The notes beneath the pieces were generated by a model that was given only the letters and a program-made list of their open reading frames with translations, was not told the DNA's origin and made no database searches. Source: Trichoplax sp. H2 (lineage: Eukaryota). From it: 64,000 bases of DNA. This document shows, piece after piece, positions 1,766-62,610 of this stretch; the stretch's first letter is position 1, and the number at the start of each line of letters is the position of its first letter. The translations under genes and the position numbers were made by a program. The stretch spans positions 930,001-994,000 of the forward strand of contig NOWV01000010.1 of the NCBI GenBank assembly GCA_003344405.1. The letters run 5' to 3'.

Positions 1766-5016
<3,251 letters not shown>

Positions 5017-5334: not shown

Positions 5335-5652
5335 ACAGTACTTTATATCCGACTTGGGAATGACAGTACTGTACACTGTACAGTACTGTAAACAGAGGGT
5401 CTCTAGTGCAGTACAGTACAATGCAATACAGTGCACAGTACATACTGTACAGTACCATACAGTGTACAGTACTGTACACAAAGCTTCGAGCACAAACGGG
5501 AAAGTGCTAGAACATGTCTTGCAACTTGCAGCAGTAGCAGCAAGAGTGATCAGTGACCGACCACTGCTAGCTCTTTGCAGAAAGAGACGCAGTATTGTAC
5601 AATGGACAGTTGGAGCCAGTACTACTGTACCGCTATACTGCACTGTATACTG
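5335..5652. repeat. TA(CAG/CTG)TA-rich array upstream of HSP70
   Basis: e.g. agtactgtacactgtacagtactgta and tacagtgtacagtactgtaca. Confidence 0.85.
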
Positions 5653-6377: not shown

Positions 6378-6915
6378 AGACAAAATCAAAATTTTCACTA
6401 AGAATTTCCTTGGATCGCATTCTAAAGCCAAAGCGGAATTTTCACTAAGCATTTCCTTGGATCGCATTTTGAGCTTGTTCAATTCCTTTTCATATTGATT
6501 TACTGTTTGCTGCGATCTAAGGTCAAAGTGGAATTTGCGCTAAGCATTTCCTTGGATCGCATTTTGTGCTTGTTCAATTCCTTGTCATATTGATTTACTG
6601 TTTGCTGCGATCTAAAGACAAAATCAGAATTTTCACTAAGCATTTCCTTGGATCGCATTTTTGTGCTTGTTCAATTCCTTGTCATATTGATTTACTGTTT
6701 GCTGCGATCTAAAGTCAAAGCGGAATTTGCGCTAAGCATTTCCTTGGATCGCATTTTGTGCTTGTTCAATTCCTTGTCATATTGATTTACTGTTTGCTGC
6801 GATCTAAAGACAAAATCAGAATTTTCACTAAGCATTTCCTTAGATCGCACTTTTGTCTTTGTTCAATTCCTTGTCATATTGATTTACTGTTTGCTGCGAT
6901 CTAAAGTCAAAGTGG
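6378..6915. repeat. Tandem repeat of about 5.5 units of 95/97 bp forming a 192-bp dimer
   Basis: Unit anchors (CTAA) at 6422, 6517, 6612, 6709, 6804 and 6901; shared core CATTTCCTTGGATCGCATTTT...GATTTACTGTTTGCTGCGATCTAA. Confidence 0.95.
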
Positions 6916-7067
6916 AAAGTGGTGTAATCCTACGCGAAAAGATTCAACTCGTCCAACTGGATGCTGCAAAATTTGTTTTTCACTTTTAGTCAGGTGTTAC
7001 CGCATTTTAGCATCCAATTACTTGCAGGCCTGATTGTAATTTACTTGCTGTCTCCATTTCTAGGTAG

Positions 7068-7233
7068 GCTTCTTCTAGTGAATTTTCATAATCAATCCCC
7101 TAATTAGAGTTAATCCTAGATAGTATTGATGTTTGTTATGCCATTTTAAGAGCTTCTTCTAGTGAATTTTCATAATCAATCACCTAATTAGAGTTAATCC
7201 TAGATAGTATTGATGTTTGTTATGCCATTTTAA
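7068..7233. repeat. Near-perfect 82-bp tandem duplication (7068-7149 and 7152-7233)
   Basis: GCTTCTTCTAGTGAATTTTC...GTTATGCCATTTTAA occurs twice with one mismatch. Confidence 0.95.
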
Positions 7234-7494
7234 TAGCCTATTTGTACTACAGCAAGCTAAGTAATCATGCAATCAATCACTACAGAGGTTGTCATGTTGA
7301 GAAATCATAGCCAAGCTTATTCACAACTGTAGTAATATTGGTAATTTTGGGGTTCTTCTCTACTATTCGACTTCTTGTCGAAGAAGTTGGTTACAATAGG
7401 ATAACGACAAAATGATACACCAAAGTCAAGCGCTATCATCTAACATCTTGTTTTTTTCCGTCATTTGTTGATAGGATCAAAGAAAAGTGAAAAA

Positions 7495-10400
7495 ATGAAA
7501 CATTTTGATATTGGTGCTACATACGAATTCAATATTCACCATATTCAGTCACCTTCTGGTGAAATTTGGGGACATCTGCAAACAAGTGTACAAGATGTTC
7601 GTGAATTATCCCATGTACTCGATTTTTTCTATAGTAAATGTGGTGATAAAATTCCCCCCTTAACTCAGGCTAAAGTTGGTCAACTGTGTTGCGCTAGAAC
7701 CAAACGCTTCGATGATGATGGCTGGGCACGTGGTAAAATTATCCAACTCGATGAAAGTAAGGATAATTTGCGCCTTTTCTTTCAAGATTACGGTCACACC
7801 CAATGGATACCACTAACCAAAGTCAAAATGTTAAAAAATACTTTCAACAATTTACCATCCTTTACTGTTCAAATTAAACCAAGTGATATTACTAAAAGTG
7901 ATTATGCACATGACGAAGAATTAAGTGCGCAATTTTGCCAACAATTAGAAAAATTAATTTTACATCAAAAAATTAAATGTATCGTTGAAAAGATTGAAGA
8001 AACTGATTTACACAAGATATTAGTTGCTCGTATCTACTTAGCAAATGGAAGAAATGAATCTATAGGCTCAATATTGTCTCAGCAGTTACGTCGTATGAGG
8101 TCCACTTTCCAACATATTTTACCCGATTGTAAAGAAGGACAAGATATTGATATCTCTATCTTACACGTTCACAATCCGGGACAATTCTATTGTAGAATAG
8201 CCAGCCAACAGTCACAAGATAATATCAAAATGGATGAATTGGAACGCTGTCTACGACTCTATTATGGTCTTTCTATTTCAACCGATCAAGACTACCCGCT
8301 CCAAGTTGGAGCTGCTTGCGCTGCACCTTTTACTGATCGAAAATGGCATCGAGGCATAATCAAGCAAATTGTATGCGATGATGGTGATAAAGAAGCATTA
8401 GTACAGAGTGTAGATACAGGTGCTTGCGAATTGATTGACAATGGCAAAATTAAAGGATTAGAACCCGAACTTCAAGATATACCGGTCAATATCTTTCAAT
8501 GCCAGCTACACGGTATTAAGCCCAACGATAGCAAATCTACCTGGTCTGTCGATTCCACGCTTTTTTTACAACAGTTAGCTCAAGAACAGAGAATTTGTGG
8601 TCTCGTACGTAGGATATTACATGACAACTCTTCTATAGGAAAGCAACTCTACAGTGTTGAATTGCATCGGCCTGGCGAAAACTTAACTGTAAACGAACAA
8701 ATGATCATGGATGGTTTTGCCGCTTCTAGCTTATCTCGACAAAGTACCCGTAGCATTACATCTCCAGATGAATCTAAGAATTGTAACGATATCGATAATA
8801 GTCAACTAGACGAAAGCAATAATTGCAAGAGTGTTTGTCAATCGAATGCTAGTAAAGTTTCTTTTGGTGATGAAATGTTTGATGTTGATCATAACGAAGA
8901 AAGAAATGCGAAGACTTTGGTAAATAGCCCCAAGTCTAACAGTAAAGTAAATATTGTAGGCAGTTTTAAGCACAATGAGCAAGATCGAAATGACTGCAAA
9001 AAACCTATTACCTACACTAATGGTGAAAATTTACAAGCTAAAAAATACCAAAACAAAAAATGGGAAGCAGTTGCCAAGGAAGAAGATTTGATCAAGCTTG
9101 TCTACGATCGATCTCGTTTAGTAACTTCTGTTGATAATCCTGACGTTATCGTAGCATTTATCAAGGATCCTGGTGAATTTTGGTGTCAGTTTGCTTCTAA
9201 TATTTCCATAATCAATGATATCCAAGCACGTATGAACGAGTATTCCCAACAAAAAAGACTTCGAATACCGAAGGATATCAAATCAGGTGAATGCTACTGC
9301 ACGCGCTTTGACAAAGATGATGTTTGGTATCGAGGAAAAGTTATTGGCAAATTTGGAGACAAAGCTAGTGTTTACTTTATTGACTACGGCAACACAGATT
9401 GGGTGCAATTGAAAGATATCATGGTATTGGAAAATGATTTTCGTCAGCATCCGTGGCAAGCGTTTACTTGCAAATTAGATGGAGTCTGTCCAATTCTTGG
9501 TAGCAGTTGGGGTTCGAAAGCGACAGATCAATTCACGGAAATGGTAACAAGTAAAACATTCTGTATGACCATTAAGACTGAGATTGATGACAAATTATCA
9601 ATTATACTTGTTGATAACGAGTCGAAACAAATTAATAATCGTCTAGTTGAAATTGGTGTGGCTAATAAAGAAACTTACAATCTGCTGAAGAAACAGTTAT
9701 CTTCCACTTACAGTAAAAATTGGAGGAGAACTGACAATGACTACAAGACATCAATGCCAACTATGAAATTTCAACCGTCTATTTCAGCAAGTCATGAAAA
9801 ATTGACTACTACTGATGTGACTGAGCACACTAAGCATAAACAACCTTCGGAATTTAACCATGTCCAGGTATGCTAGCAATATTATCGTTAATATAACTGC
9901 TTGGATATCGATGGATCGTACATGCACGATCATAGAGCATGAATGCATCATGTATAAAGTTTCCCTTATTTATAAAACTCTAGTAATGCGTAGTTTATTT
10001 ATATATCATCTTATAGAAGGTAGAGGAAAGATTAAGTTTGATCGTGGGAAAGAAGACTAGCGTTTGTGTTATGCATGTTGAATCTCCTAACTGTTTCTAT
10101 GCAGTTATACCAAAAATTGACAGCTTTATTGATATGGAAAAGAAATTGCAAGATTTTTGCGCTAACGCAAGTAAGATGTCCACTCGATTTGTGATTGCTA
10201 TTTTGGCAGTAAAAGTCAAGTAATTTTAATGTTGATCTTACAATAGGAAGTCCTGTTTCACCAGACGAATTTTGCCTTGGTAAAATGTACGTTGCCTTTA
10301 GTACCAAGTTTAATAAATGGTGCAGATGCATTCTCACTGACAAAAATGAAAGAGGCGTGATAACTTGCGACGTTTTCTATATTGATTATGGTACGGCCGA

Positions 10401-11316
10401 AAAATCTATCCAAGGCACGAGTTTGAAAATTTTACCTCCTAAATTTCACGAAACTAAAGATCAGGCATTAAAATGCTATTTGACGCCAGCATCGGCTGGA
10501 GAGGATCTTCGAAGTAATTGGCACCCAATGGCATCTTTACAGTTAGAAAATTTGTGCCATGACAAATGGCTCGATGGTACTATTACTCGCGTAGATCAGG
10601 ATGGTAAACTTTTTGGGCTTTCTATTACCATTGCTAATAAAGATAGTCCAACAAAAGATCGAAATGTCTATGACATGCTAAGCAAATTTATTAGATCTGA
10701 TTCTTCTAAGAGTCTCAATATAAGCGCAACTTCAAAGTCTGGGTTAAATAGGTATGTTCACTTTAAAACGTCTTTATAATTTCCAATATAACCAGAGTAA
10801 CTAGCTAGCTAGCTAGCTTTCAATGCTCTTTATACTTAAGTAGTACATTTTTTTAACATAAATTGTATCCTAAAGTGAAACTAACAATAGCTATACAAGT
10901 TCAAAGCTCGGGCAAACATCTGCAATGAGTAGTAAGAAAGGTAATTCCTCTCGTACGAGTTATAACTTTAGATATATGCCTTATCACTTTGTGAGGAATT
11001 TAAAGTAACTTCGGTTAGATGCCCAACATTGACGTTACTGATTTATTTAGGATCTTCAAGATGTGAAAGTGAAGTTGACACGTTAATTTTTGCTGAAGGC
11101 TCCGCATCTAACTCTCGCGAATTGTCAATACCTTTACAGCCCGAAATTATAAGGATTTCTGGAAGGAAAGGTGAACGTGTTCTTATTCCGTCAAAGGTCG
11201 ATTCTACTAGCACTCCAATAACGTCAAACGGGCATAGGAGCCACATAGGCATGAACAATATTAAAAACGGTCTGTCGACGCAAGATCGATTTAGCCGCTT
11301 AGCTTCAGCTGTATAA
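7495..11316 (+). CDS. Multi-Tudor-domain protein (TDRD1/6/15-like, about 4 extended Tudor domains); exons 7495-9867, 10017-10170, 10247-10751, 10876-10940, 11051-11316
   Basis: Tudor signatures WARGKI..FFQDYGHT, WHRGII..VDTG, WYRGKV..YFIDYGNT and WCRCIL..FYIDYGT, each with flanking eTud strands (e.g. PGQFYC, PGEFWCQ, QAFTCKL); all splice phases are compatible. An acceptor at 7473-7474 suggests an upstream exon, so the start is uncertain. Confidence 0.88.
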
Positions 11317-18300: not shown

Positions 18301-19182
18301 TGTAATCACTTCATTAATATAGTCATTGCAACGTTTACATCTATCGATATGACGGAATTCTCGACATAGTTTAACAAAGTTAAGAAAGTAACTTGCCTAA
18401 ACTCGATGACAGCATACTATCTTCTTCCATAGATCTACCATAGACGTCGTCAGTGCATTCTATAAATTCATATTTGTAACATTTTTTAACGGCAATACGT
18501 ATTTTGTTTAAGATACCATAAATATCGCTTAGGTCGTATTTTAGCCAAATTGTTTAAGGTTATTAAGTTAAGTTAAAAGTTTAATGCATTCTACACGTTA
18601 TTACGAATATATTTTAGTAAGTAATACTATTACAAATTGACATGGTTTGATTTGGAATCAGTGCTGATGAGAAATTGATTGCCAACTATCTTAGATCATG
18701 ACATAAAATAATACGAGATAGACATACAGTATAACTATTTGTTAAAGAGGATATATTTCCATTTATTCATTTAGCCAGGTATAAAGGGAAACGCATGTTT
18801 CAGTTGATAGACGTTATATCCTAGTTGATACACTATTGTATTTTATACATTGGACCACCCTAGCGCACGACGGTGGTGACTAGTGGCTGCATACAGCAAC
18901 GTACTTCTACGTATGATCTATTTCAATATCCTAGCGATTAACAACTCGCTCACTCTCTAGACAGCTACTTATTGCGTGATGAAATCCATAGTCATGATAA
19001 ATTACTATACCTGATGTTCTATAATTATTATGATTATGCATCTATCCTGGCCTGGCAATAAAAGGTGTAAACGACTACCACATTACGAATCAAAAGAGCA
19101 AAATAAGACAGTGTATAATCCTCTGTGGTCGTATCTTACCATCTTCATAGTGCATATTGCGAACTGCCCTATGTCTAGCCAT
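12320..19182 (-). CDS. HBS1L: HBS1-like translational GTPase (Pelota partner), multi-exon; last micro-exon (FK-stop at 12328-12320) is tentative
   Basis: Exon 1 [14 protein letters not shown] (19182-19140); [21 protein letters not shown]1_N domain [26 protein letters not shown]-domain [62 protein letters not shown]-terminal [17 protein letters not shown]. Confidence 0.95.
15696..16528 (-). CDS. Alternative terminal exon of HBS1L encoding a Ski7/HBS1LV3-like isoform
   Basis: Long open frame inside an HBS1L intron; acceptor ttacAG at 16530-16529 is phase 1, the same as the constitutive exon at 15501; motifs [11 protein letters not shown] and [15 protein letters not shown] near the stop. Confidence 0.85.
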
Positions 19183-22168
19183 GGTGATGTTCCTCTTGTA
19201 TTGAACTATTTCTCGTATGATAGCGTCTCCAACGTTTTGCAAACTAACATCAGCACCTGTGATAGCTGTTATTCTACTTCATCTATACTGTCAATCTCTT
19301 CTAATGACACAGATAGATGCTATAATACTATATACTATTAATTCCTACCAATGGGATATTACAACACTCTATCCACTGGCACAGGAAGACACTTTTTCTT
19401 GGGAAAGAACAAATCTCATGGTATACAGTATTCTGATTATTGATCACTAACTACTGTAGTGTATCATTAAGGCTTACTAAAGTACTTTTCAATACTGCTA
19501 ACTAGGCACATCAACTATCCAATATCTCCTTTGAAATCAAATCCATTAATGGCAGAAAAAATCCACTTCGTCCTTGTGGTCTATGCTCAGGCCAGGCTAG
19601 TACAGGATGGCTAATTTTCCGTACAACATGTACAGTATGGGCAAATGATTACTGAGTGATACAATAATGCTTGCAACCAGTCTATTTATAGTAGACCACG
19701 ACGGTGGGCTAGTGAGGCGCCTGTGGTTGACGCCAGCTCGATTGTACTGCGACGAGACCGTGACGTTGGACTTGTTTAGTGGAAATGTCTTATACAGGAC
19801 ACAGTCAGTATCATACGCTAATAGGAATAGACCTCCGTTTTTGATCATGTCTGGGTAACATCCCTTAAAGTACAGTACAGTGAGGCGCGTTCAGATCAGA
19901 ATACAGAGTACTGTGCCATTCTGTACTGTAGACTGTAACTGGGTAAACGTCAGTTGCTTCCAGGTGTACAGTATGACATACAGTATACAACATATACTGG
20001 GCATGAGCAGTAAAAGTCACGGCTATGACTATCCACCGCAGTCATTTGTACTGTATTGCAAAATGAAGAGGATATAGCACCAAAATTGCTATCCTAAATG
20101 GTAGTGAGAAATGACTGATTATTGGTATAGGGTTGTAAGAGTATTTCTACATAAAAATGTAGCCGTAAATCAAGTAAAAATCCTGTAAAATAACCAAACA
20201 GTGGTATAAGGAATCACGATCACTTTTGAACTTCTAACCAATATCGACTGTGCCTAGCTATCTGGTCATGGCCTATACTGTATTATACAAGTATACTACG
20301 GTCATTTCAATTTCGTAGGCAGCTAAATATATCCCTGTTAGTAAAAGGTATAAGTACAGTCGGTACACGCCAAGTATAACTAGCCAGGGATCGACTAGTA
20401 TAATAAAAAAATACAAAACTACACTATTACTTTAATGTAATGATAATAATGATGGGAATATTAATATACATGTACTGTACAGTGAAACTGGACTTACTGT
20501 ACTGAACACGCGAAGTAGTATAGTGGATACCTAGTAAATTACGTATCATTTCAATTTAACTATGCACTATAGATACTATCGATAAATATCAGTAAATTAC
20601 ATGTCATTTTATTTATTTTAACTTCACTTGCGAAACCGCATATTTCTTCTATTTTGCAACAAATATGGCCAAAAGACGCATATGTAACGTATCCGTGCAT
20701 ATAGTAGTAACATGACTACATAAAAAGAATAATATCCGTGTCTATAGTATTTCACGATTAAAGATTACAAATTTAGAGCACAGTACCGCACAGTATATTA
20801 CGTAGATTGCATATACTGTACAGTACAAGGCACGCTGCAATACTAACCAAATGCAAGATTGTAGGCAAGCACGCTTGTACAAAGTCAGTAGAAGAATAGT
20901 CGCATTTTTATCACCACTAGATTTCTCTTTGAATCTTGCGTCAAGAGTTTTCCATTGAAAACTGAAAATAGCATTCCGCAATAATGTATAAATTCCTACA
21001 AGTTTAACTAGCAATTTCAACACCAATAAATTACACGACTATTTTTACACCTATTAAATCCAAAACAACTATTTTCATTTATCAATTTGTTGTACTGTAC
21101 AAGTGTTTTAATATACATAAAAAAGTGAAATAGAATTAACTTCAAGCAAAGTTTGGCTATTCTAACTAGGAATATCATATGGTGAATATACATATATAAT
21201 ATACGTATATGCGTCGTGTACAATACCTACAGTATATGTATACTGCATATAACAGTGTACAGCATTTGGGCTGCCTATGCCGTACAAATTCATTTGCCAA
21301 TACAACACCTGCAATGTTCGCAATAATTTACATTGTACAGTTTAAATTTGTAAAGTAATTCAAGTAGTGTAGGTAAGAATTGTGTAGTACACCAGTCGCT
21401 ATTCATAAAGTCGGATATTTTTTAAGGATTAAGAATTCCCCTTTCCTATTACAATGCTATTATGTATCAGTAAATATGCTATCACAATTACTATTGTTGA
21501 AACTATAATTGCAACATCAGAAAACCTTGCAGCATTGAGTCTTATTTATAATAATAAAACAAAATAGACGTTATTTAATAGTGTACAAATTTTAAGGACG
21601 AGAGGCAATTTTTGAATTATTTAAATCAAATTATACATAAAGAGAAAATTTTAAAATAATATAAAAATGAGGCATTGAAAAGTCATCATCTCGTCGAAAT
21701 GTTAATATGCGCATGTTGTAAGTATTGTATAATTGTATAAAAATATCCGATGATTTAGTGCAGTAATATTAATATTGATTCGATTAGCATCCATAGATCC
21801 TTGACAAAGCACTATCTATATGATTTGTGATTAACATAAATTTAATGCGAGAAATCAAAAAAAAACTTTATACAGAATTTCATACAGTAATACGTAGTTG
21901 GAGAATAAAATTTCAAATTAACCGTCAAAAGCTACCCTTCGCATGGCAGTTAAACTTTCTCTTTTTATCTAACAGAAAAATATTAAAATTGCATCATTAC
22001 TTTGTTAGACAATTTGGCGATTAATAGCACCTTGATAGAACTAATAGAAGGACTAATACTTATAGCCAGTTATTACACAACATACATATTACTGCCGTGT
22101 TTTATACTAAACTGACTTGTACACTTACATGTTAAATATTTTACCCATCTAGGTCTTGAAAATGAAAT

Positions 22169-25100: not shown

Positions 25101-28100
25101 CAAAACATGATAATTTATAACTTAATAATCTAGTATAGTTTGTTATTTATGCAAAATGACAATTTAGCTATAGCAATGTTAAGAAGACATACATTACCTC
25201 TAGTTTAGTTAGGCTGTCGAAGAATTTTATCATCTTTTTGTTGGATTAAAAATAAGTCATAGTTAGTAATTAATTGAGCAACCATTCGAAGTATTATCAA
25301 CTGTAACACGATTTGTCGAAATTTTGCTAGAAGGTATAGAGTTGTAGTTGCGCTAAATGATCCAGTGTTGATACATAAACGACAAAGATTCTAACACACA
25401 TTCCTATCTACACATAGTTGTGATACTAAGAGCATAAATATTATCTCGTATAGATTTATAAAATAATTTTAATTGGAAACGTTTAGTGTTATCTCAGATG
25501 AATAGCATCTGTCATATCAATGTACATAATATATTTATAGGTACAAAGAGTATTAAATAAATAGCTACTTAAGTCTATTAAACTAATGCTGCATTTATTT
25601 TCCAGCAAATACTATCAAGTGCTGTAATACATCCGTACATAAATAACAAATAATACTTTTAGGTATCACTTTGTCTAACATATGATAGATATAATCAGTG
25701 ACGTCTTACATTATAGAAACTACGTGATTTCCCTTCCGAAAGCCATATTTCATTCCATACAATTTCTACACCTTCATCGGTATCCATTCCCAAGAAAGCA
25801 TCCGTTCCTAGCGATCCATGCTGAACAAGCTAAATCCAAAATTATAGTAAAATGTCAAGTATTACTCTATAATGAAATTAAGATAGTTAGGTTCGGTGAT
25901 CGTATATCGTATTTCTCAGATATTAGATCATCCTTACATTACAACAAATTTGATTACAATACGAAAATAATAACTATAAATCTTCATATGGGTATGCAAA
26001 ACTTCATTGCTAGGTAAGCATAGTCTTACTCCACGTAATTTATGTCAGTGCTTAGTGATGTAACTCTAAAGCAGAAGGATTAAGATCATAGTATGGTGTG
26101 CAATAGAGACCCTGGAGAGTCATTCTAGTGTCTTTAGTGTGCAATAGTGACCATGGAATACTACCATCCGGGCACCATTTATGTACACCATCAATGTAAT
26201 TCAATTCTAATGTAACGATACCACTAAGACAGCATGAATAATCTTGAAGATACTAATCATGAATTTATTTCGGCTCAATGTTTGCTCAGTTCACCCAGAG
26301 TTCTCAACTATCTGTCTAGTTGATATGTATCAGTAGTATCGTATCTTTATAGGTAATTCTCTAGAAAATTCTCTGACATGAACTACTGTATACAGTTAGC
26401 GTATTTAAAATATTAAAGTAAAATACTCATTGATATTTCAGTATCTTCGTTAAAAATTACAAACATATTGACCTTTACAATTGTCCCTTTAGGGGGTCCT
26501 CATCTGTATTGACATCATAGATACTTATCGTTTTTAGAATATTTTCGCGATATGACTGAAGTTGTACATAATCTATAGCAAGCTATATACAGTACAGTAG
26601 TACCACTTTAGAAACTTCTTCTTTGGGAGTCGAAAAAATATATTTATAAAGTTCGTTTCGATACATTGATATTATATTATAATATCGATAAACGGTAAAA
26701 CATTGTTAGTTTCAAGTACCAATTAATGCCTAATCAAAGTCAGTATATACGCTAGACTAGATATACTGTACTGTACTACTGTGCCGTACATCGTTAAAAT
26801 CGTACATAAAGTAAAATAAAGGAATTACTGCTTACTACTGAAGACTTACAAATTCGTAATCTTATTATTTCTACATCATTTTGCAGGTCATAAACATCCT
26901 AATTTACACGATGCACTTCCTGTAGGTCTGACGATGGTGCAGTAATTACTTTATTCTCATTATACAACATACAATATAGTATAGCCTAGTTAAACAGTCA
27001 TCTTAACTTTGAAACTACCAATTACAGTATACAGTACTACAATTTATACTTGATTACTTTGACAATAAGCGTAAGATTGATAATGTTCACGGATAAAAAT
27101 ACGACTAATTAATGCAATAAAATATGTAAGAGCGAGAATGTAGTCTTCAATATGGGATCATGCTAAGGATACCAACAGTTTTTGAGTTTCTCAATGAAAC
27201 TGTCAAGGCCATCGGATACTTTAAGTTACAGTAGATAAACCAGCTAAAAGTATGGATCTTCATGTAGGCTGTTGACGTAGCAGAAATAATATTTCCTGAA
27301 GTGTTTGTAAAATGTGAGATTTTAATTTTATGTTATCGTGGAGTTTTAACCTAAGTTTGATAAGAGGGAAAAATCCTTTGGGTTTGGTCATCTACGCCTA
27401 TTTCTATTGAAATGGTTTAATAAATGCAGTAACATACGCCAGGTAGTCAAGAATTTTTCGTTTTAAGATGAGCTCACTAACTTTGTTTGTACTGTACCCT
27501 ATGTAATAAGAAGGTAACGGAATTGAACCGCTTGGAATAGTAAAATATTTGACTAGTCTGAGGGTGATAATCTATTATATTACATAATCCATTCAATACT
27601 GATCAAAATGGAACTATGCGCAGCACATTATAACGATAATGTACAGTAAGTACAAAACTATTGATTCAAGATGTCAACGCGATTGAAGTTTTACAATCTA
27701 TTTGAACATGCCTATTTCTTTAGCACGTTTCCGACGCGTAGTATTGATACCTTTCCTATTTTTTCGATTCTAGTAATACAGTAAATCCTGCATGGATAAA
27801 TGGTGTAGAAGTAGACGGCAAAATGCTCCATTGCAGATTAATTTTAATAGCCTGCAAAAGCGATAGTTTAATAGAGTTTGAGCAATCTGCATGACGGTAA
27901 TTTTATAGCCATTCTAGAAGACTTTCTCTTTCCTATGCTATTTACACTTAACATCATCAGGTTAGAGAGATTGCCACCTAATCCAACCTACTATCATTAC
28001 AATACAGTCATCCATCTCATTGGATAAATACCAATGTTACAATCATAAGATGGGGGATCTTCAAAATAATCTCAACGAATTCAGAATAAAAGGTTCAACA

Positions 28101-29366
28101 CTCTCTACGACGAGAATGGCTGCGATATATTGTACTGTAAGTGGCTGAAAGTAAATAGACACCTTGGGCGTAGACATTACAATACAGGCTTGTAAAAGCC
28201 TTGCATAATACATGCGTTATACTAATTGAGAAAGAAACTGATAGGATTAGACGATTATTTTGTCTCCACATTCATTTTACTATGAAAGCAACGTCCGCTC
28301 ACTGTTGTCATATTTACGGCTTCTACGCCTTTGATCTGCAGTTGTGGGCCAGCTTGTAAAAATTGTCAACTCAACAACGTTGAACATCCAAACTGTTTCA
28401 GCGATGTCTGGTTGAAGATTTTTTACCAGCTGATAGTTGTAGTAGTCCACTACTGAAAGCTGAGGAATTGGTTAACAGTACGGTTCAGTTAAACTAGAGT
28501 GTTGCATCCACCACCCATGTTGACAAACGGTCGTCATTGGGAATACAGTATAATATTGATGTGTCAATAAATTAAGGCTTGGGCACTGAAATTATCCACA
28601 TTCATGGTCCTCCTGAACGTTTTCTATATATTTAAAAAATTGCGTACCCCGAATAATAGGGCTTTTATAAGCTTATGGCCTACAACATTGAAGATTCTAT
28701 CCATGACTGTCCTGTGAAAAATACACTGAGTGTCGTCTTGTATTGGCCGACTGGGTGACTATGTTGCCTTACCGTATAGTAGAATGTAGGTACAGTACGC
28801 TATACAGTATAGTCCTTGTACCAGCCAATCAACCCAGTCAAGTCAAGTCATGAAAAGAATGCAGTAGAAGGAAGATAAAAAGCACACTGGCTTGCTTTGC
28901 AAGATACAAGGTACAGTAACTCATTTTAAATGATAGAATAAAAGTGCTTAGGTTTTAAATTAGTATAATATTATAGCTCTTTTAGCACTGCAGGTCAATA
29001 ATATATTGAAAAATGCAAGCATAGGCAGTCTTCAATAAGACGAGCAAGTGTAATGATCCATCAACCCAATACCAGTGGTATTCTCTCCACTTTAGTCAGA
29101 AACACGTTTTACTTAAACCAACTCCATTTTTGAACCGCGTAATACTTTGAATGTGAAACGATATGATTTTGTAGTATCACCAAAATTGCTATACATACCT
29201 CTCTTTTTTGTTTCTTGTATCTTCCATTGGGACTTTCTTCTAATACCTTATTCTCATCATCGCTTTCGTCGCCAGAATCAGGACGTGACGAAGTGTCAGT
29301 AGACAACTCTTCATGAGCTTGAGGGTTGAGAGTATCTGATTTACTCAACGAATGAGTAGCAGCCAT
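22169..29366 (-). CDS. NRBP1: Nuclear receptor-binding protein (NRBP/Madm) pseudokinase, multi-exon, first intron about 3.4 kb
   Basis: DESDDENKVLEESPNGRYKK; AFLGMDTDEGVEIVWNE; FITEYMTSGSLKQFLKKTKKN; KRWCRQILSAL; PPIIHGNLSLDTIYIQHNGLIKIGS; ALDLEKYIEEVRSGLYPLT; stop TGA at 22171-22169. Confidence 0.94.
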
Positions 29367-29554: not shown

Positions 29555-30090
29555 TACAGTACTGGTACAATCCATCGACAGTAGTTTCCGACTGAATTAT
29601 CTTGTACAGTACAGTACCGTACTGTAGACTATACTGTACAGTACTGTGCAGTGTACCAACTACTGTACCAATTACAGGTTTTAGTAGTGTAACTGTACAG
29701 TACAGTACTGTGTCTACTACGGTACAATGTACTGAGGGCGTTTCACAAAAGATTTCCAGAGATTGCAATTATACAGTACAGTATACTGAACTGTACACTG
29801 TACACTGTACAGTACACGGCACCAGTGGCACAAGGCAAGCAAAGACCAAAAACCACTGTAGGGTAGAAAAGTACTGTACTGTATTGTACTGTACAGTACT
29901 GTACAGAAGAGGTAACAGAGACTGTGACCGTTACTTTTACCAGTGCTGTACTGTACTGTACAGTGTACAGTAGATGATAGAGGTCTTGCTGGTCTGGTCT
30001 ACAGTGTACAGTACTGTAAATTCCCAGTGGCTAAGCCTGTTGATACTGTACAGTACAGTACAGTACTTTCTATTATACTGTAAGTACTGC
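29555..30090. repeat. TA(CAG/CTG)TA-rich array upstream of NRBP
   Basis: e.g. tactgtactgtattgtactgtacagtactgtacag (29872-29906). Confidence 0.9.
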
Positions 30091-30863: not shown

Positions 30864-31967
30864 AGATATACTTGTACACGACTGCGCAATTTTTCCCTAT
30901 TATTACAGTAATTAGATATGCCTGACATTATGTAAATGAGCTTTCCACTTTTTCAGCTTTGTGCATTCATTGTGAATCGGTTACTATGCACGTACAGTAC
31001 AGTACTGTACAGTGTACAGTATGTGTTTTATAGTACTGTACAACTGTACAACTACTGATGCACGTCCATCACTTGGTGTACCGTACAGTACAGTATGAAG
31101 TCGATGTGGTCATTAACTAGCTATTAATTACAGTACAGTACCGTACTGTAATTAATTAATCATCATGAGATGATTTATAAAACATACTGTACACGTACAG
31201 TACTGTACAGTACAGTACAGTAGGCCACGCTAATTCCCACGTACAGTACTGTACAGTACAGTACATCGTTGCTTATCATTATTACTAACATGTACTGTAC
31301 ATACAATGTAATAGAGATAAAGACAAATACGTCATAGTGCGCTTGTGCAGACATGCTTCAGAATTACAGTTTACAGTAGACNNNNNNNNNNNNNNNNNNN
31401 NAGATATACTTGTACACGACTGCGCAATTTTTCCCTATTATTACAGTAATTAGATATGCCTGACATTATGTAAATGAGCTTTCCACTTTTTCAGTTTTGT
31501 TCATTCATTGTGAATCGGTTACTATGCACGTACAGTACAGTATGTGTTTTATAGTACAACTACTTATGCACGTCCATCACTTGGTGTACCGTACACTACA
31601 GTATGAAGTGGATGTGGTCATTAACTAGCTATTAATTATACAGCACAGTACCGTACTGTAATTAATTAATCATCATGAGATGATTTATAAAACATACAGT
31701 ACACGTACAGTAGGCCACGCTAATTCCCCCGTATGTTATCACATACGTGTAATAAAAAAAATTGTTTATGTACAGCGGCAATACTTCTAATCAAAGTGGA
31801 GTTAATCTTAATCTTATTAACAGTGTGGACAGTACAGTACAGTACAGTACATCGTTGCTTATCATTATTATTAACATGTACTGTACATACAATGTAATAG
31901 AGATAAAGACAAATACGTCATAGTGCGCTTGTGCAGACATGCTTCAGAATTACAGTTTACAGTAGAC
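30864..31967. repeat. Diverged duplicate on both sides of a 20-N gap (30864-31381 vs 31402-31967), probably two haplotypes assembled in tandem
   Basis: Copy A ends and copy B begins exactly at the gap edges; they differ by SNPs and indels. Confidence 0.9.
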
Positions 31968-32294
31968 AAGTTATGTCATCCTATCAACTCTATTGTCAAA
32001 TGGACTAATTAAAATGATAGCATGATCCCATTTTAGTCGGGGAGTACTAAAAGAAAGAATAGTAGCCTCTGTTTTAGTTTGCCAAATCTAAACTTAAAAG
32101 AGGGCTCATATAGATTTTAGCTCATCAAGATATTATTTATAAGGTTTCGCTAAAATTGAAAAATTTTCAGTCAAGATCGATTGGACGATTGGGTCAGTCG
32201 AAATTGAAGTCAATTATCCATCTAATTACTGTATACTATAGTAATTATTATCATCGAGACGCTGTAAAACCATTTGTTAGAGTAGTCTAAAATT

Positions 32295-36325
<4,031 letters not shown>

Positions 36326-37770
36326 TACGTTGATAAGATTCTATGTTGTAAACAGATAACGTATGAAATATACTGTATCCGACCTCCTATCACTGTTATT
36401 TGTTCATGATTCGATACTCGTATAAAAGTACGTATGTACATGTTGTTAATTTACTCGAGTTATCTGTCCTTTCCTGGTGTACGCTCCTCGTGGACTCTAA
36501 ATAAAATCCTGATAACTCTTAACCTCAACAAGCTCATGTCTTGGTTCGTGATCTAATTTTTGACTAACGAACCCGTAATATTACAATCTGAAGGTGCTAA
36601 AACTGCTGAGAAATAGTAAAATTGATACCATCTGTTATGTATGTAAGAATACAGTAACTTGTTGTACTGGACCTAACGTGTTAGCATAAGATAAGGTAAT
36701 GAATTACTAAGATAAGGGTAAAATACGCCATTACAGCTATACTATTCAAATGCAGTAAATCCTAAATAAAGGAGACTTTTCAGTAAGCTTACTAGGAGGA
36801 GTGTATCAAAGTTCCTCGTGCTAACGTTAACGACTAAGAGTGGAAACACAACGCCATCTACATGTTTAGAATTATCGTTCACCATTGTAAAGATATGCAG
36901 TGAACCTGTAGCCACAGTTGATACATATGATCTACAGTATAAAAGATCACAATTATCATTTATCGTATTTGTATCAGCTATACAGTATAATCCAACTTGA
37001 TATTGCCATATTAGTGGACATTGATAACTATTTATTTATTTATACTAAGTGTAGGAAAAATCTAAAGTTGATAAAGCATTTTTAGATGACAAAGATAAAT
37101 GAAAGCAGCAACATTGGCAGAATGCTGCTAGATATTTCAACTAAATAATTTTTTATAGGATATTCAAGTGGAAGGACATTGTTTCGTCGTCCTATAATTT
37201 TATGTCAGCCATTTTGCAGTCGTTATATGGGCTTGCTGTTCACAACCAGCCAGAATTTTGTAACGTGGTAATAATAAAAATGTACGGTAGGGTCAGGCTG
37301 GGCTGAGCGTGTGTGTGTGAGGATTGGATAGATTTGCAAATCAACTCCTGTAACTTGGAACTCTATGATCCACCGTCTGCGCTATACATTTTATACAATC
37401 AACCATTCAATTAACTTGTGACAAGTACACTGACAACAACTACAAGTCATATGACGTTGATCTTTAAAATCTGCGAGACTGTTATTAACTTCAAGGCGAG
37501 ATTTTGCGTGGTAACGAAATGAATGAAATTGAGCATATCGCTGTAGTACTGAAAAGCCTTGGTGGCTCCAACAACGCTTTATGTCTTCTGTCCAGTACAC
37601 ATAGCAATGCAAAGCTTATCGCCAAGATCTCGAATAAGGCGAGCATGAAGTCTGCACTGCACTGCTACGTAATAATCTGCATTCCACAATCACCACCGTT
37701 ATATTCTCTGGTGCGACACTAGGTCAATCACGCAATACTCTACTAGGTTAGACACAGCAAAGCAGCCAAC

Positions 37771-37970
37771 ACTGTGGAGGAGGCTTGTGCGCTGTGGAGC
37801 AGGTTTTCGCACTGTGGAGGAGGCTTGTGTACTGTGGAGCAGGTTTTCGCACTGGAGGAGGCTTTTGTGCTGTGGAGCAGGTTTTCGCACTATGGAGGTG
37901 GTTTGTGTGCTGTGTAGCTGCGCCGCACTGTGGAGGAAGTTTGTACGCTGTAGAGCATGTTTTTACTGTA
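37771..37970. repeat. G-rich minisatellite, about 5 copies of a 38-40 bp unit built from two ~20-bp halves
   Basis: ACTGTGGAGGAGGCTTGTGYRCTGTGGAGCAGGTTTTCGC starting at 37771, 37811, 37851, 37889 and 37927. Confidence 0.92.
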
Positions 37971-37989
37971 ACATGGTGGCCCTTCTCGG

Positions 37990-38750
37990 CCACCGTACAG
38001 TACCTCTCTACTGTACACTGTTACTGTACAGTACAGTATGTACAGTACAGTACATTGTACAATTGTACAGTACAAAGCTGTGACGATACAGTACAAATCA
38101 CTCTGGGAGTATCCCGCCATACTGTACAGTACAGTGTACAGTACACTACAGTCAAGTCCAGGTATCCTTCTAGCAGTACAAGTGTACAGTACAGTACTGT
38201 ACTGTACTAGTGTACTGTACTGTACAGTACAGTGGACACCTCCCCGGATGGATGGACTTTTCATACCAGATTCCGCCGAAAATGTCGACTCGGTATGAAT
38301 CTTCCATGTCTGTTTTCGAAATCACTCGTATTAATTTGAATAATGTTTATGATCTACGGTAAAGCTACTACTTCCAAGCAGAGCTTAGTAAAAGCCAACA
38401 GAATACAATGTATTAATCAAATTCAGAATCGACTGTCTGCATACTCAACTGCTGTCATAACGAAGTGTTTGACACAATTTGTTGACCAAAGTTGGCCAAA
38501 TGTCTGTCCATCCAAAGAAACGTTCAGTCCTTCCAGCTGTCCTAGCAGTCCTTGCTACAGGAGCTCAATTACAGTACATCGTACTGTAAAGCACCCGGTG
38601 AAATACTGTACCTACGGTACTTGACTGCCATCTACTGTCCTGTTGGTATAAAAGCCTTGAAGTACAGTACTGTACGGGGACCATAGTACTGTACTGTACA
38701 GTACCGTGTTGGTCTGAAAAAAAAGACCGTACTGTAGAGTATGGTACTGA
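37990..38750. repeat. TA(CAG/CTG)TA-rich arrays upstream of EIF3E (37990-38235 and 38565-38750)
   Basis: e.g. gtacagtacagtactgtactgtactagtgtactgtactgtacagtacagt. Confidence 0.9.
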
Positions 38751-53538: not shown

Positions 53539-54454
53539 TCGAAGGGTATGGGAACTAAGGCAGTTCTGTGGGAATAAACACCTGGTCCTAGTAATAACAT
53601 ATTAACAAGTTGAATTATACTAACTAAGTAGGCTTGATACCAGGAGGAAAGTAGATTCAATTTCTTTGCAATAGCTAGCTAGAATGATGGGAAAAGATGC
53701 TTCTGCATCATATGAGCTAGCAATCAACGGCAGTCAGCGTTTTTTCTAGCTTTCATTCTCTTCTACATGGATTTCAACTAGCTACATTGAGAAATCCAAC
53801 CGTTAAATTCAATCAGTTGGAGGACATTATCATGTGATTGTTGTTCCCTCCCCTTATTGGTTCATTTAGGGAAAGGAAACAAGCAATGATGATAAAGTAA
53901 ACACAAGCATGAAGATTGCAAATCTCAGGTTAACACTCTTCCAATCAATGGTTCATCACTTTGCAAATCACTGGAAATTAACACATTGACGTCAAGTTGA
54001 TGCTAGCGAAGATTGTAATGATTGCAAGCATTCAACACAATTGATTAAACTTGTTATTTCCACCATATTCTAAATCCAGCAATCAAAAGACGCCAAGAGA
54101 ACTAATCACGTGTCCATCACTAAACAATACTAAAGTGGTAAGATTTCCCGCCAGTTACCTTGAAAGAAAGGATATAAAGTCTCCATCGAAAACAATCTTA
54201 TCCCATTAGATTTGTTCATCGATTAGCAGCAACATCGATAGACTGTCATTCTACTCCTTGACCTCCAACTAACTTACTTGATAGTCCAACCTTTCAACTC
54301 TACTCTATAAAAAAAAATTGCATTTCACCAATTTATTACAGATTAATTCGTTCTCATCAATTGATCACTCTTGATTACTTTGATAGATAAATTCCACTTT
54401 ACATAGATATATTTTTCTCTCTCTCTCTCTCCTTTATTGGTCCTGCAATAAGAC

Positions 54455-57400
54455 ATGGAATTACCATTGACAACGGATTCACATGATGCCACACAATCAA
54501 CTGGTGGTATCAATGGCGATGTCCACTTTACTCCAACCATGATAAGTCAAAAAAGGAAAAGACAAGATGAAGATGATCCACAACAGCAACAACAGGTGTT
54601 GGCAACCAATCAACCCATCGATTATAATCAATTACCGTTATGTAGTGGCCGATGGCTAGCTCTCGATACTCCCTTGACTGTCGAACAATTACGTGATCAA
54701 GTACGTAAGCGAAAAAGTTATGAAAACAATCAAAGTATGCGAAAACGTTTACGAATCACAGGTACAAAATGCCAATTATTACAGGAATTACGCAGTTATG
54801 ATCATGCTAAGATGGACGCTATCAAAGATGAGATACAAGATTGGGATATCCATCAATGCTTAGATCGCTTAATAGCTTGCTTACATGATGAAATTGATGA
54901 ATACTATGTTGCACCATTACTGCGCCGTCTATGTAAATTGTTGCAAGTTTATCATGCTGATTTATACGCCGGCCAAGTTAAAGAAGAATTAAATGTTGAT
55001 ATGATTGGTATAAATCTTTTCCAGGAAGCTTGCTTTCGCAATTTAGATTTTATCTTATCTTGTCCACAAATGAACAAAATTTTATACCAGGATAAATTAA
55101 TCGCTCCTGCAGCAATTGCACGTCAGGTTAAAAATCATCAGCGTCAACTTGCTGTTGAACAAAATAAATTAACAGCCACACAAGCACAACAACTAGCAAG
55201 TGTTGACGATTTAGCGGTTGCAAGCGATCAAAGTATGAGCTGTTATAGCCTCTTTCCTACCGCTATCTTGACACGCATTGTCCGCGATCAATCGGGAAAA
55301 TATGACCGCGATCGAGCATTAAAACGCATCATTCAACTATCTAAAGATACATTAACGCGTGAATCATGTGGTATGGCATTATCCGAAGCTGTCTCACGAA
55401 TTTGTCATTGCTATCAACTTAAAGATAAACTTCTCCAATATGGTATTCTTGAGTGTGCCGCCATCAATTTCAAGGATGATCCAATGTGCTCTCAACACTT
55501 TGCCCAGTTTATGGATTCTCTCAATTGTAGCGATTGGCGTCAACAAAGTTGTGATACACTAATAACTGTACTGGAATACTTTGTCATCCCAGCTATTGAA
55601 GGCTACCATAATCATGTACTCGATATCGATTTTAGTGATCAAGCATTTTGTGTTGCTCATCGATTATTCTCCTCGCTTCAACAGCCACAAACTATGGCCA
55701 CGATTATGGAAAAAATTAGTGATAAACATCCTATTCTCAGTTATATGAAAGGCCAATTGAACGAAGATAGCCAAAATTTACGCGGTAAGTCCTCCTGATT
55801 AATGTTAATTAAATATAAGACTAAGGGATTAAATATTTTTTTAGTTTTGTCTTTTTTTTGTTTTTCTGTTAATGCTCTTTACACACAGACACACACTCAC
55901 TATAGATTACTCAATTTACCAGATAGTAAATTGAGTAATCTAAATTATCAATTTTTTTATATCTTAAATCAGCCTGACTTTTAATGAATATTACATCTTA
56001 AGAAGTAGTCTACCGATAGTTAGACTTCAATGTTAATCCAATCGATGGAAATTGAACTAGACATTAGGAGACACTTTAAAATATTTTATTTAACACCCTT
56101 ATAATTAGACCGATCAACTTAACTCGTGATGTAGACATGAACATTTCAGACAAATTTTTTTTATAATTAGTGTCTCTAGCGCAATAATATTTTCTTTATA
56201 TGTTAATATAGATTGAATTAGATAGCGCAAAAAATAACATAAAAATAGAAATAGTCATCATAAGATTGATACATGATAGATTGGATACAATTTTGAATAT
56301 CATCAAATATTCATTAGCTATTTGTGCATAATTCAATTTAATATAGTAAATTGTCATGCGGCATTGTTCATATTTTGCCTTTCATGACTGAAACTATGAA
56401 TATATCAAAGTTTTATATCATGACATGAACGATGTTAGAAAATACTTTTTTTCTCTCTCTCTTTCATATTCACACGCACACAGCCTCTCTCTCCCTCTGC
56501 ATGCCTTACTTTTATAATTTAGTTCAATCAGTCTTTTTCGTCGCTTATTCCATCATTTCTAATTATCAACAATACCTTGATAATATTGATGATTATTTCC
56601 ATTCAATGGAATGCTTGTTTAAAGTTCTCGTCATCTACGTTGATGGCTGCTTTGCATTCTCTAAGTTAGCATAGCCCTCTAGCGAGATGAATAATATCCT
56701 AGTTGAATGATGATTGTTGATGATTATGCTAACTAATCAATGATTGTTGTCTAATCATTAACTTGCATCCCATTACGTTAATGTTGACAATTTTATTATA
56801 ATGTTTTGTCTTGGTTAGCATTACCTTTATTGTTAGGTAGTTAACAATAGAATACAAGACAAGTTTATTATTGGTTATAGAATTGATTTTTCTCATCAGT
56901 TTAGCATTTAATCAAGTTAAAATTGAATTTTTAACTTGGACTCTATTATCCTATATTGTCCAGTCGAGTCAATTTGTTGTCTGGGTGTTTTTTTTACTTC
57001 AATTCTATTTATCGTCTTATACAATTTTAACTACTTGAGTGATCGTATAAAGCTCGAATTGAAGGAGTTCATAAAGAATTGTTAAGTAATAACACAAGTG
57101 TATACAGGTTGTACTGTACTTCTCTATGGCCAGTAGAATGAGATAGAAAAAGACTATTTCTATATAGAATAATAAGAAAAGAGATAGAAGATGACGGATT
57201 AACTTGTTTAAACCTGTTTGATCATGAAATTTTAAATTTTCTATCGGTTATTGCTTGTTTTTTTTCCCCCCGCTTGCTACTAGCACACCCGATTCCACGC
57301 TTTGGAATCTCTTTTTACATTTTTCTTTAGCGTCTGCATAGTTAAAAAGATCAATCACGCGCTATAAAATACAATGCTAATGATTCTCATCCAATACGAT

Positions 57401-61785: not shown

Positions 61786-62610
61786 GCTAGATCCATAATA
61801 TCTTATATTATAGAAGTCTTGTTCCGTTGATACTAGTGTGAGTAATTTGATTCTTTAATTTCGCTCTACGGAGCGCTAATAACCTCTTGTTACAACATTT
61901 ACAATCTATTAGACTACTGCCACTATCAAAGGATTACAGTATATACTGTGATGGAGGGTTCGATATCTCAGAGGATTGAGATTTAGTCGCCATTTACAAT
62001 TATTACAACAAAGGGTTTATAAAAGTTATGCTTTATTGTAGGTTAGTAATGTGAAGTACAGTGAGGTAGTTACGGTAGATCAGCGTGCAAGCTGTCGTGA
62101 GTAACGAGTAGAAGTATTAGACTGTGAGAGACTAACTAGAAGACTAACTGAGAGGCTAATGAACTCTGAGGTAGAAATCGCTGGTATTTATAGTTTTAAA
62201 GATAGAGCACATGTAGAGAATAGGATTGTGGAATTAGATACAACATATACCATAACAGGTTACAAAATAGCAGATGATTGTAGAAAAACAGCGAGTACCG
62301 TAATAACTAAATACAGTAGTCTATATATGAATGTAGAGTAAGCGGACTGTAGATCTGTCTAAATATAAGAGCAATACAACATGTCTATATTTAAGAGTAG
62401 AATATAGTTACAGTATATTCTNNNNNNNNNNNNNNNNNNNNGCTAGATCCATAATATCTTATATTATAGAAGTCTTGTTCCGTTGATACTAGTGTGAGTA
62501 ATTTGATTCTTTAATTTCGCTCTACGGAGCGCTAATAACCTCTTGTTACAACATTTACAATCTATTAGACTACTGCCACTATCAAAGGATTACAGTATAT
62601 ACGTATATTC
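61786..62610. repeat. Duplicate on both sides of a second 20-N gap (61786-61946 equals 62442-62602), probably alternative haplotypes
   Basis: About 160 bp of identical sequence restarts exactly after the gap. Confidence 0.9.
61947..62412 (-). mobile_element. 466-bp insertion with TG...CA termini (solo-LTR-like or non-autonomous element)
   Basis: Present in the first copy and absent in the second; the minus strand reads TGTAAC...TATATAG...AATAAA...ATCACA. Confidence 0.6.

Follow-up and report, generated by a model that had tools for sequence, protein, structure and literature searches.

The ACAGT repeat of Trichoplax promoters behaves like an excision footprint inserted at TA

We examined a 64,000-nt stretch of the Trichoplax sp. 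H2 genome (contig NOWV01000010.1, positions 930,001 to 994,000; hereafter the window, with positions counted from its first base), in which pentanucleotide units CWG-TA (W being A or T) are stacked into TA(CWG-TA)n islands upstream of genes. The main island lies at 29555–30090, and its unit is that of the (ACAGT)n repeat known from Trichoplax. We found that, in small numbers of cases, units have been inserted at TA, either way round and with no template nearby. The repeat behaves like an excision footprint, and we found neither an intact enzyme nor a CAG-ended element. We give a probability of about 0.6 to the explanation that the (ACAGT)n repeat was built mainly from excision footprints of Tc1/mariner type, targeted to TA, concentrated at open promoters and then reworked.

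The direction of change was read in copies of dispersed repeats, which served as mutual outgroups. The sample comprised 116 sequences (1.0 Mb), of which about 105 kb fell in qualifying alignments once those resembling islands had been set aside; 5-bp insertions or deletions (indels) across repeat copies are not fully independent events. After merging, 32 places carried a 5-bp indel, 14 of which were non-duplicating and bounded by TA. TACWGTA was made by 12 of these 14, with 7% expected (1336 of 18216 TA-NNN-TA words). Seventeen indels of 3–8 bp had no counterpart in at least 10 partner sequences, and ten of them were 5 bp long. Read by hand, these ten corresponded to six exact TACWGTA, three words one substitution off TA-CNG-TA and one that was two substitutions off. 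Each of the six exact gains was present in a single copy and missing from 25–31 partner sequences, for a net addition of three bases plus TA.

Individual TA sites could also be hit repeatedly. In the repeat family of the copy at 36633–36853, one TA gained units in L086 (CTG), L095 (CAG) and L145 (CTG), three copies that are 83–89% alike and are each nearer to non-carrier copies. A TA of another repeat family gained units both ways, CTG in L162 and CAG in L174. Such gains, at a lone TA and in both orientations, are thus not products of slippage or local template switching, and the canonical Sleeping Beauty/Tc1 footprint fits them. In 39 repeat copies, we counted three exact gains per 154 singleton substitutions; by our own arithmetic, this rate would sustain 2–3 units per kb at steady state, of the order of the ~1.2 per kb seen. 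Several insertions of the 36633–36853 family are heterozygous, the allele that lacks the repeat having been assembled next to a gap.

Allelic variation was examined in 23 pairs of sequences flanking assembly gaps, with 182 substitutions over 12,957 aligned bases. Five bp was the commonest indel size above 1 bp (11 of 60 indels up to 30 bp). When indels were classed by size and insertion point, as the initial annotation of this DNA had proposed, among ten five-base allelic indels with clean flanks, five were duplicating and four non-duplicating single-unit gains. Indels that invariably duplicate the neighbouring unit, orientation included, an outcome named there as speaking against a footprint origin, did not occur, since units were gained at TA with no neighbour and in either orientation.

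In the window, the dense arrays announced upstream of five genes were all present and far exceeded dinucleotide shuffles (200 for each array). TACWGTA occurred 27 times at 29555–30090 (shuffled mean 1.7, maximum 5), 9 times in the HSP70 array (0.5), 5 times in the HBS1L array (0.2), 21 times in the CBS array (1.2) and 28 times in the EIF3E array (0.9), and the entire window held 186 copies against 14.9 in 20 shuffles. All five arrays lie upstream of the nearest start codon, as read from the sequence, at a distance of about 0.1–1.3 kb. The main island consists of 15 runs of 1–4 units, and both the mixed orientation and the described variants (TA-CAGTG-TA, TA-CACTG-TA, TA-CCG-TA and TA-CGG-TA) were located in the sequence. 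The description of the units as only sporadic elsewhere proved an understatement: 85 heptamers lie outside the named arrays (1.4 per kb, far over chance), and a small cluster of six at 26588–27036, within the span of the kinase-like (NRBP-like) gene, had not been named.

Unit order and distribution were further studied in about 660 kb of sequence in six blocks, hand-chosen and not random. Of 388 pairs of adjacent units, 218 (about 56%) have the same orientation, that is, CAG and CTG follow each other in near random order rather than in runs, as had been anticipated, which limits the share of slippage. Single-unit runs made up 1025 of 1257. Simulations of insertion at TA gave same-orientation fractions of 0.45–0.54; when sites beside G or C were mildly favoured, the run lengths were reproduced and the fraction was 0.47–0.53. 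Simulation with 30% slippage gave 0.74–0.82, above the real value of 0.57.

Outside islands, TACWGTA was the most enriched 7-mer, with 668 copies for 215–300 expected. A G before or a C after was found for 202 of 552 isolated heptamers (~33% expected); with flanks so near background, the unit outside islands is bounded by TA and not by GTAC. A GTAC-anchored unit was accordingly rejected: it suits islands, where G precedes 47% of single units, but fails for isolated heptamers. Per TA, TACWGTA was 6.8-fold rarer in predicted exons, for 2.1–2.5-fold with control words. Extrapolation from 1716 heptamers in 664 kb of these non-random blocks gives, as an order of magnitude, some 200,000 heptamers per genome.

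The expected promoter enrichment holds. According to Wang et al. 2010 (PMC2871265; this and the other works are cited here from the accessible parts of their texts), 54% of ACAGT repeats lie within 1 kb upstream of a gene, with enrichment at translation and kinase genes. In our blocks, large islands lay between divergent exons in 16 of 37 cases, against 805 of 3088 random places; the self-trained exon finder used has low sensitivity, calling 256 exons in 664 kb and none beside one of the 38 large islands, hence the promoter test is rough. With promoter enrichment holding and units gained in the absence of an adjacent unit, two of the three outcomes listed by the initial annotation as contradicting stacked footprints did not occur; the third, the lack of a transposon family with matching termini, is taken up below.

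The next most enriched TA-bounded words outside islands were also of the form TA-C..G-TA, namely TACSGTA (S being C or G; 150 against 79 expected in these blocks), TACGCGTA and TACGAGTA. We counted TACGCGTA 86 times against 12 (both strands), TACGAGTA/TACTCGTA 77 times against 27 and TACACGTA 47 times against 24. Other families that target TA may have left TACGCGTA, TACGAGTA/TACTCGTA and TACACGTA as 4-base scars, although nine six-base indel contexts included no 6-bp gain of this type. The footprint of Minos is TA-CGAG-TA, for which a literature lookup gave no confirmation.

A simple scheme for the origin of the islands would start with the observed addition of the 5-mer CWG-TA at TA, across non-coding DNA, in either orientation and with no local template. 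The match with Sleeping Beauty chemistry suggests as the writer a cut-and-paste element with CAG ends, which would duplicate TA on insertion. At excision, its 3-nt overhangs would be rejoined over a central mismatch, leaving CAG or CTG. Events would be much denser near housekeeping promoters, where the clustering is observed, probably as a result of open chromatin. Each scar would supply a new TA in the seemingly favoured G-TA or TA-C context, so that scars could stack. The stacked islands would then be reworked via slippage, repeat-mediated deletion and central A/T flips, of which part is seen. A Tc1/mariner element appears to us the best explanation for the writer, with moderate confidence, although the element itself was not found.

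A broader proposal can be put forward tentatively, and we would not bet on it at even odds: a rarely resident TA-targeting cut-and-paste element may have been active in placozoans for long and may still be so, its ~200,000 scars, piled up at open housekeeping promoters, making the dominant microsatellite of the genome a natural calling-card record of stem or germline accessibility that may now mark or insulate promoters. The rarer words TA-CSG-TA, TA-CGCG-TA and TA-CGAG-TA would be the scars of other families.

The candidate writer was sought in the genome assembly (G000). Six protein or family searches, the family search being a loose first look, gave eight transposase-derived loci: DDE_3 found two, the L011 protein four, DDE_1 three and HTH_Tnp_Tc3_2 the same four Tc1 loci. 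Transposase_1 gave no match, but its controls were blank too, which makes the result uninformative. L011:1376–2520 (G000:C323) is a near-complete single-copy Tc1 DD34E gene with D, D and E kept, one intron and one premature stop; a search for longer relatives was blank, and weak. At L182:1480–2450 (G000:C1, ~1491540–1492510), a truncated Tc1 frame, reduced to the DNA-binding part, lies downstream of two back-to-back arms resembling terminal inverted repeats (TIRs). L183 and L184 are broken transposase loci. L012, L185, L186 and L187 carry uninterrupted, TIR-less open reading frames (ORFs) of 358–525 amino acids with DDE_3 or DDE_1 and HTH domains; their catalytic positions are altered by our own reading, and these loci look domesticated, as candidate DNA-binding proteins. 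No intact DDE/D transposase was found in this assembly at this search sensitivity; a few active copies could be missing from a collapsed assembly.

Dispersed repeats examined were three of the solo long terminal repeat (LTR) type and one bounded by TTAA. The latter type is represented by a ~220-bp repeat at L033:1055–1278, found at five places in G000 and heterozygous at two. An unrelated 81-bp TA-bounded hairpin at G000:C164 (~381096–381176), whose perfect 25-bp inverted repeat starts with GGCCCG, is a possible miniature element.

The idea of the initial annotation, that arrays are stacked cut-and-paste footprints, is supported in part by the gains at TA sites and the near-random order, and falls short on the element, which was not found, as well as on tract ends and the 9-base variant, which were not reproduced. 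A number of observations weigh against an origin from Tc1/mariner footprints, beginning with the element. The searches described above brought up no transposon family whose termini are paired CAG. Around the eight transposase-derived loci, no CAG-ended TIR pair was detected (the flanks of L185–L187 covering 0.4–0.8 kb), and L011, the best candidate, showed no TIR pair at all. The single-copy relic at L182, whose two arms start TA-CGGT and enclose a unit island, would match the minor CCG/CGG variant alone. TIR scans of 0.8–1.0 Mb (~1% of the genome) gave no CAG-ended element, hits starting with CAG being mostly inside islands or at chance level. The heterozygous insertions seen at assembly gaps resembled LTRs or were bounded by TTAA and never had CAG ends, and Wang et al. 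2010 reported 11 mariner/Tc1 fragments and no active element.

Unit structure and variation bring further points of this kind. Neighbouring units agree in orientation slightly more often than expected (p 0.017). Real tract ends (W 0.30, T 0.14) exceed those of insertion models (W 0.09–0.25, T at most 0.12). The 9-base TA-CASTG-TA (4.7 per 100) was reproduced by no model, pure stacking included, and is not among the eight Sleeping Beauty footprints given in the accessible text of 10.1101/659086, whose short non-canonical footprints are not enriched here. Allelic indels in islands often span several units. Of 84 aligned heptamers, 11 differ between alleles at the central base alone, compared with 18 differences at 8466 other A/T sites; we estimate that repeated gains at hot sites account for part of these flips, not all, and a second process is needed, be it in-place inversion, conversion or misalignment of rearranged arrays. 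Finally, 30 copies of one repeat family showed no TACWGTA gain in 18.9 kb; these being the best 30 of 677 candidates, they were selected against indels.

Other explanations place the source of the units elsewhere. An enzyme, whether host-encoded or domesticated, or some unusual form of break repair might insert units at TA and leave footprint-like sequence with no persisting mobile element. Insertion at TA is observed while no element was found, which speaks for such an enzyme, and the genome has transposase-derived ORFs that lack TIRs and keep their DNA-binding domains intact (L012, L182 and L185–L187). However, the four long ones among them have altered catalytic positions and L182 is the DNA-binding part alone. 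Moreover, the constant C-W-G requires a donor, which a transposon end provides, and the parallel words TACSGTA, TACGCGTA and TACGAGTA suggest several element families. We hold this explanation for unlikely, if still worth keeping in sight. It has also been proposed, in the reading of PMC2871265, that a palindromic microsatellite was retained at promoters as a factor-binding site, having grown by slippage together with template switching. The association with promoters and housekeeping genes (PMC2871265) agrees with this, as does the recovery of ACAGT by a de novo motif search on predicted chromatin maps (10.1101/2024.11.14.623548). A neighbour was duplicated in five of nine single-unit allelic gains, multi-unit indels and central flips are common, and a 7-mer tandem is present at 29790–29811. 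Insertion, though, likewise predicts duplicating-looking gains at least half the time, whereas a microsatellite cannot turn an isolated TA of a repeat copy into TACWGTA, with CAG in one copy and CTG in another. Gains need not copy a neighbour either, as illustrated by the 12 non-duplicating TACWGTA gains in repeat copies, and slippage beyond a small share overshoots the same-orientation fraction in simulation. Slippage as the origin of the units is already contradicted, and we regard the microsatellite explanation as a whole as improbable. Local template switching by fold-back copy was tried on its own and rejected: it gave the right central base in four of eight testable lone events, that is, at chance, and two more events lacked the required context (by hand).

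One last possibility is that islands are remnants of Mutator TIRs carrying the loop-anchor motif of Kim et al. 2025 (PMC12221973), a motif that occurs at placozoan housekeeping promoter hubs and sits in such TIRs. The Chimaera preprint (10.1101/2024.11.14.623548) nevertheless identifies the motif that Kim et al. found in transposons as ACGG and lists ACAGT apart from it. No MULE domain (PF10551) was found in G000 by a search that detected controls in 3 of 14 cases, and contigs matching the islands run into unrelated flanks (agreement 0.38–0.44, two DNA runs). Identity with the Mutator motif was dropped on these three grounds, and we consider a Mutator origin very improbable.

The genes around the islands can be described as follows. 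The main island occupies the divergent spacer between CBS and a kinase-like gene on the minus strand, the first coding exon of which (29112–29366) starts with an ATG at 29366, 189 bp from the island. The gene names given by the initial annotation are supported for HSP70 and HBS1L (Pfam) and for CBS and EIF3E (PDB); the name NRBP is the weak one. One exon of this gene matches kinase at E 0.006, below the cut-off, and a PDB search with exon 1 gave no match. We presume it to be NRBP from resemblance, the name being unconfirmed. An RNA-library contig spans 29199–29512 and provides a weak hint for the first exon.

The CBS array (30990–31300, 21 heptamers) is present as described, with the correction that it was assembled twice, as two alleles around an N gap (31382–31401): beyond the gap, a second allele of 30864–31381 follows in tandem at 31403–31968. 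The two alleles of this island are distinguished by repeat-flanked indels of 13, 17 and 20 bp and by one indel of 96 bp; in two units the central base is flipped between A and T. The probable first coding exon of CBS lies at 32295–32411 on the plus strand, with a start codon read from the sequence, and a downstream exon matches CBS. The gap at 62422–62441 is of the same sort, with two alleles tandem-assembled around it, an artefact of assembly that doubles local sequence; one allele there has an LTR-like insertion containing an ORF (62105–62341).

The HSP70 island (5335–5652) lies upstream of a minus-strand gene with its ATG at 5016, and a multi-Tudor-domain gene (7444–10779) stands head to head with HSP70. 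The weak HBS1L island (19860–20055) likewise precedes a minus-strand gene, its ATG read at 19182. Two sub-islands at 37964–38750 precede EIF3E on the plus strand (ATG 38828). Tandem repeats at 6421–6917, 7068–7237 and 37770–37969 (periods 95, 84 and 20/38 bp) lie near the HSP70/Tudor and EIF3E promoter regions. The solo-LTR-like repeat at 36633–36853 (221 bp, plus strand) occurs at ~40 places in G000 and has a 5-bp target duplication. A protein bearing the name of Trichoplax adhaerens matches the ORF at 54452–55795 with 100% identity and 99% coverage.

Wang et al. 2010, as far as its accessible text goes, left the origin of the dominant pentamer open. If the footprint origin is true, a supposedly transposon-poor genome would have been heavily edited by transposition without countable copies, an activity that repeat annotation misses. 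Microsatellite-like DNA would then have another way of arising, haplotypes would gain differences in their promoters from it, and accessible chromatin could be mapped from sequence alone. Any genome can be put to the same simple test through its 5-bp indel spectrum.

The (ACAGT)n repeat of Wang et al. and the islands described here share the unit, the genus and the position upstream of genes. In that work, ACAGT made up 78% of the pentanucleotide repeats of Trichoplax adhaerens; perfect single-orientation repeats above 12 bp were counted, and a binding site was proposed. The repeat and its promoter bias were thus already known, whereas mixed orientation, dispersed single heptamers, insertion at TA and a footprint origin are absent from the accessible text. 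What is new here is the direction of change, namely unit insertion at TA. Our literature search, with most subscription journals outside its coverage, found no paper proposing a footprint origin for this repeat; in the accessible part of PMC6067683, ACAGT occurs only within a primer. The Chimaera Hi-C model ties the same ACAGT motif to Trichoplax chromatin structure, as an effect in silico, and the accessible text of the preprint proposes no origin. The motif of Kim et al. is likewise associated with placozoan housekeeping promoters and a DNA transposon, but it is an ACGG repeat (as reported second-hand) of another superfamily and belongs to element ends, where ACAGT units would be scars. A further close counterpart is the canonical footprint of Sleeping Beauty and Tc1. 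That footprint was described at engineered or single excision sites, in contrast to the units described here, extrapolated to ~200,000 per genome and stacked at promoters, for which no element was found. Sleeping Beauty excision leaves TACAGTA or TACTGTA (PMC6943129), and the two systems have in common an identical 7-mer, the TA target, both orientations and a 5-bp net gain (PMC6943129, 10.1101/659086, PMC8151067).
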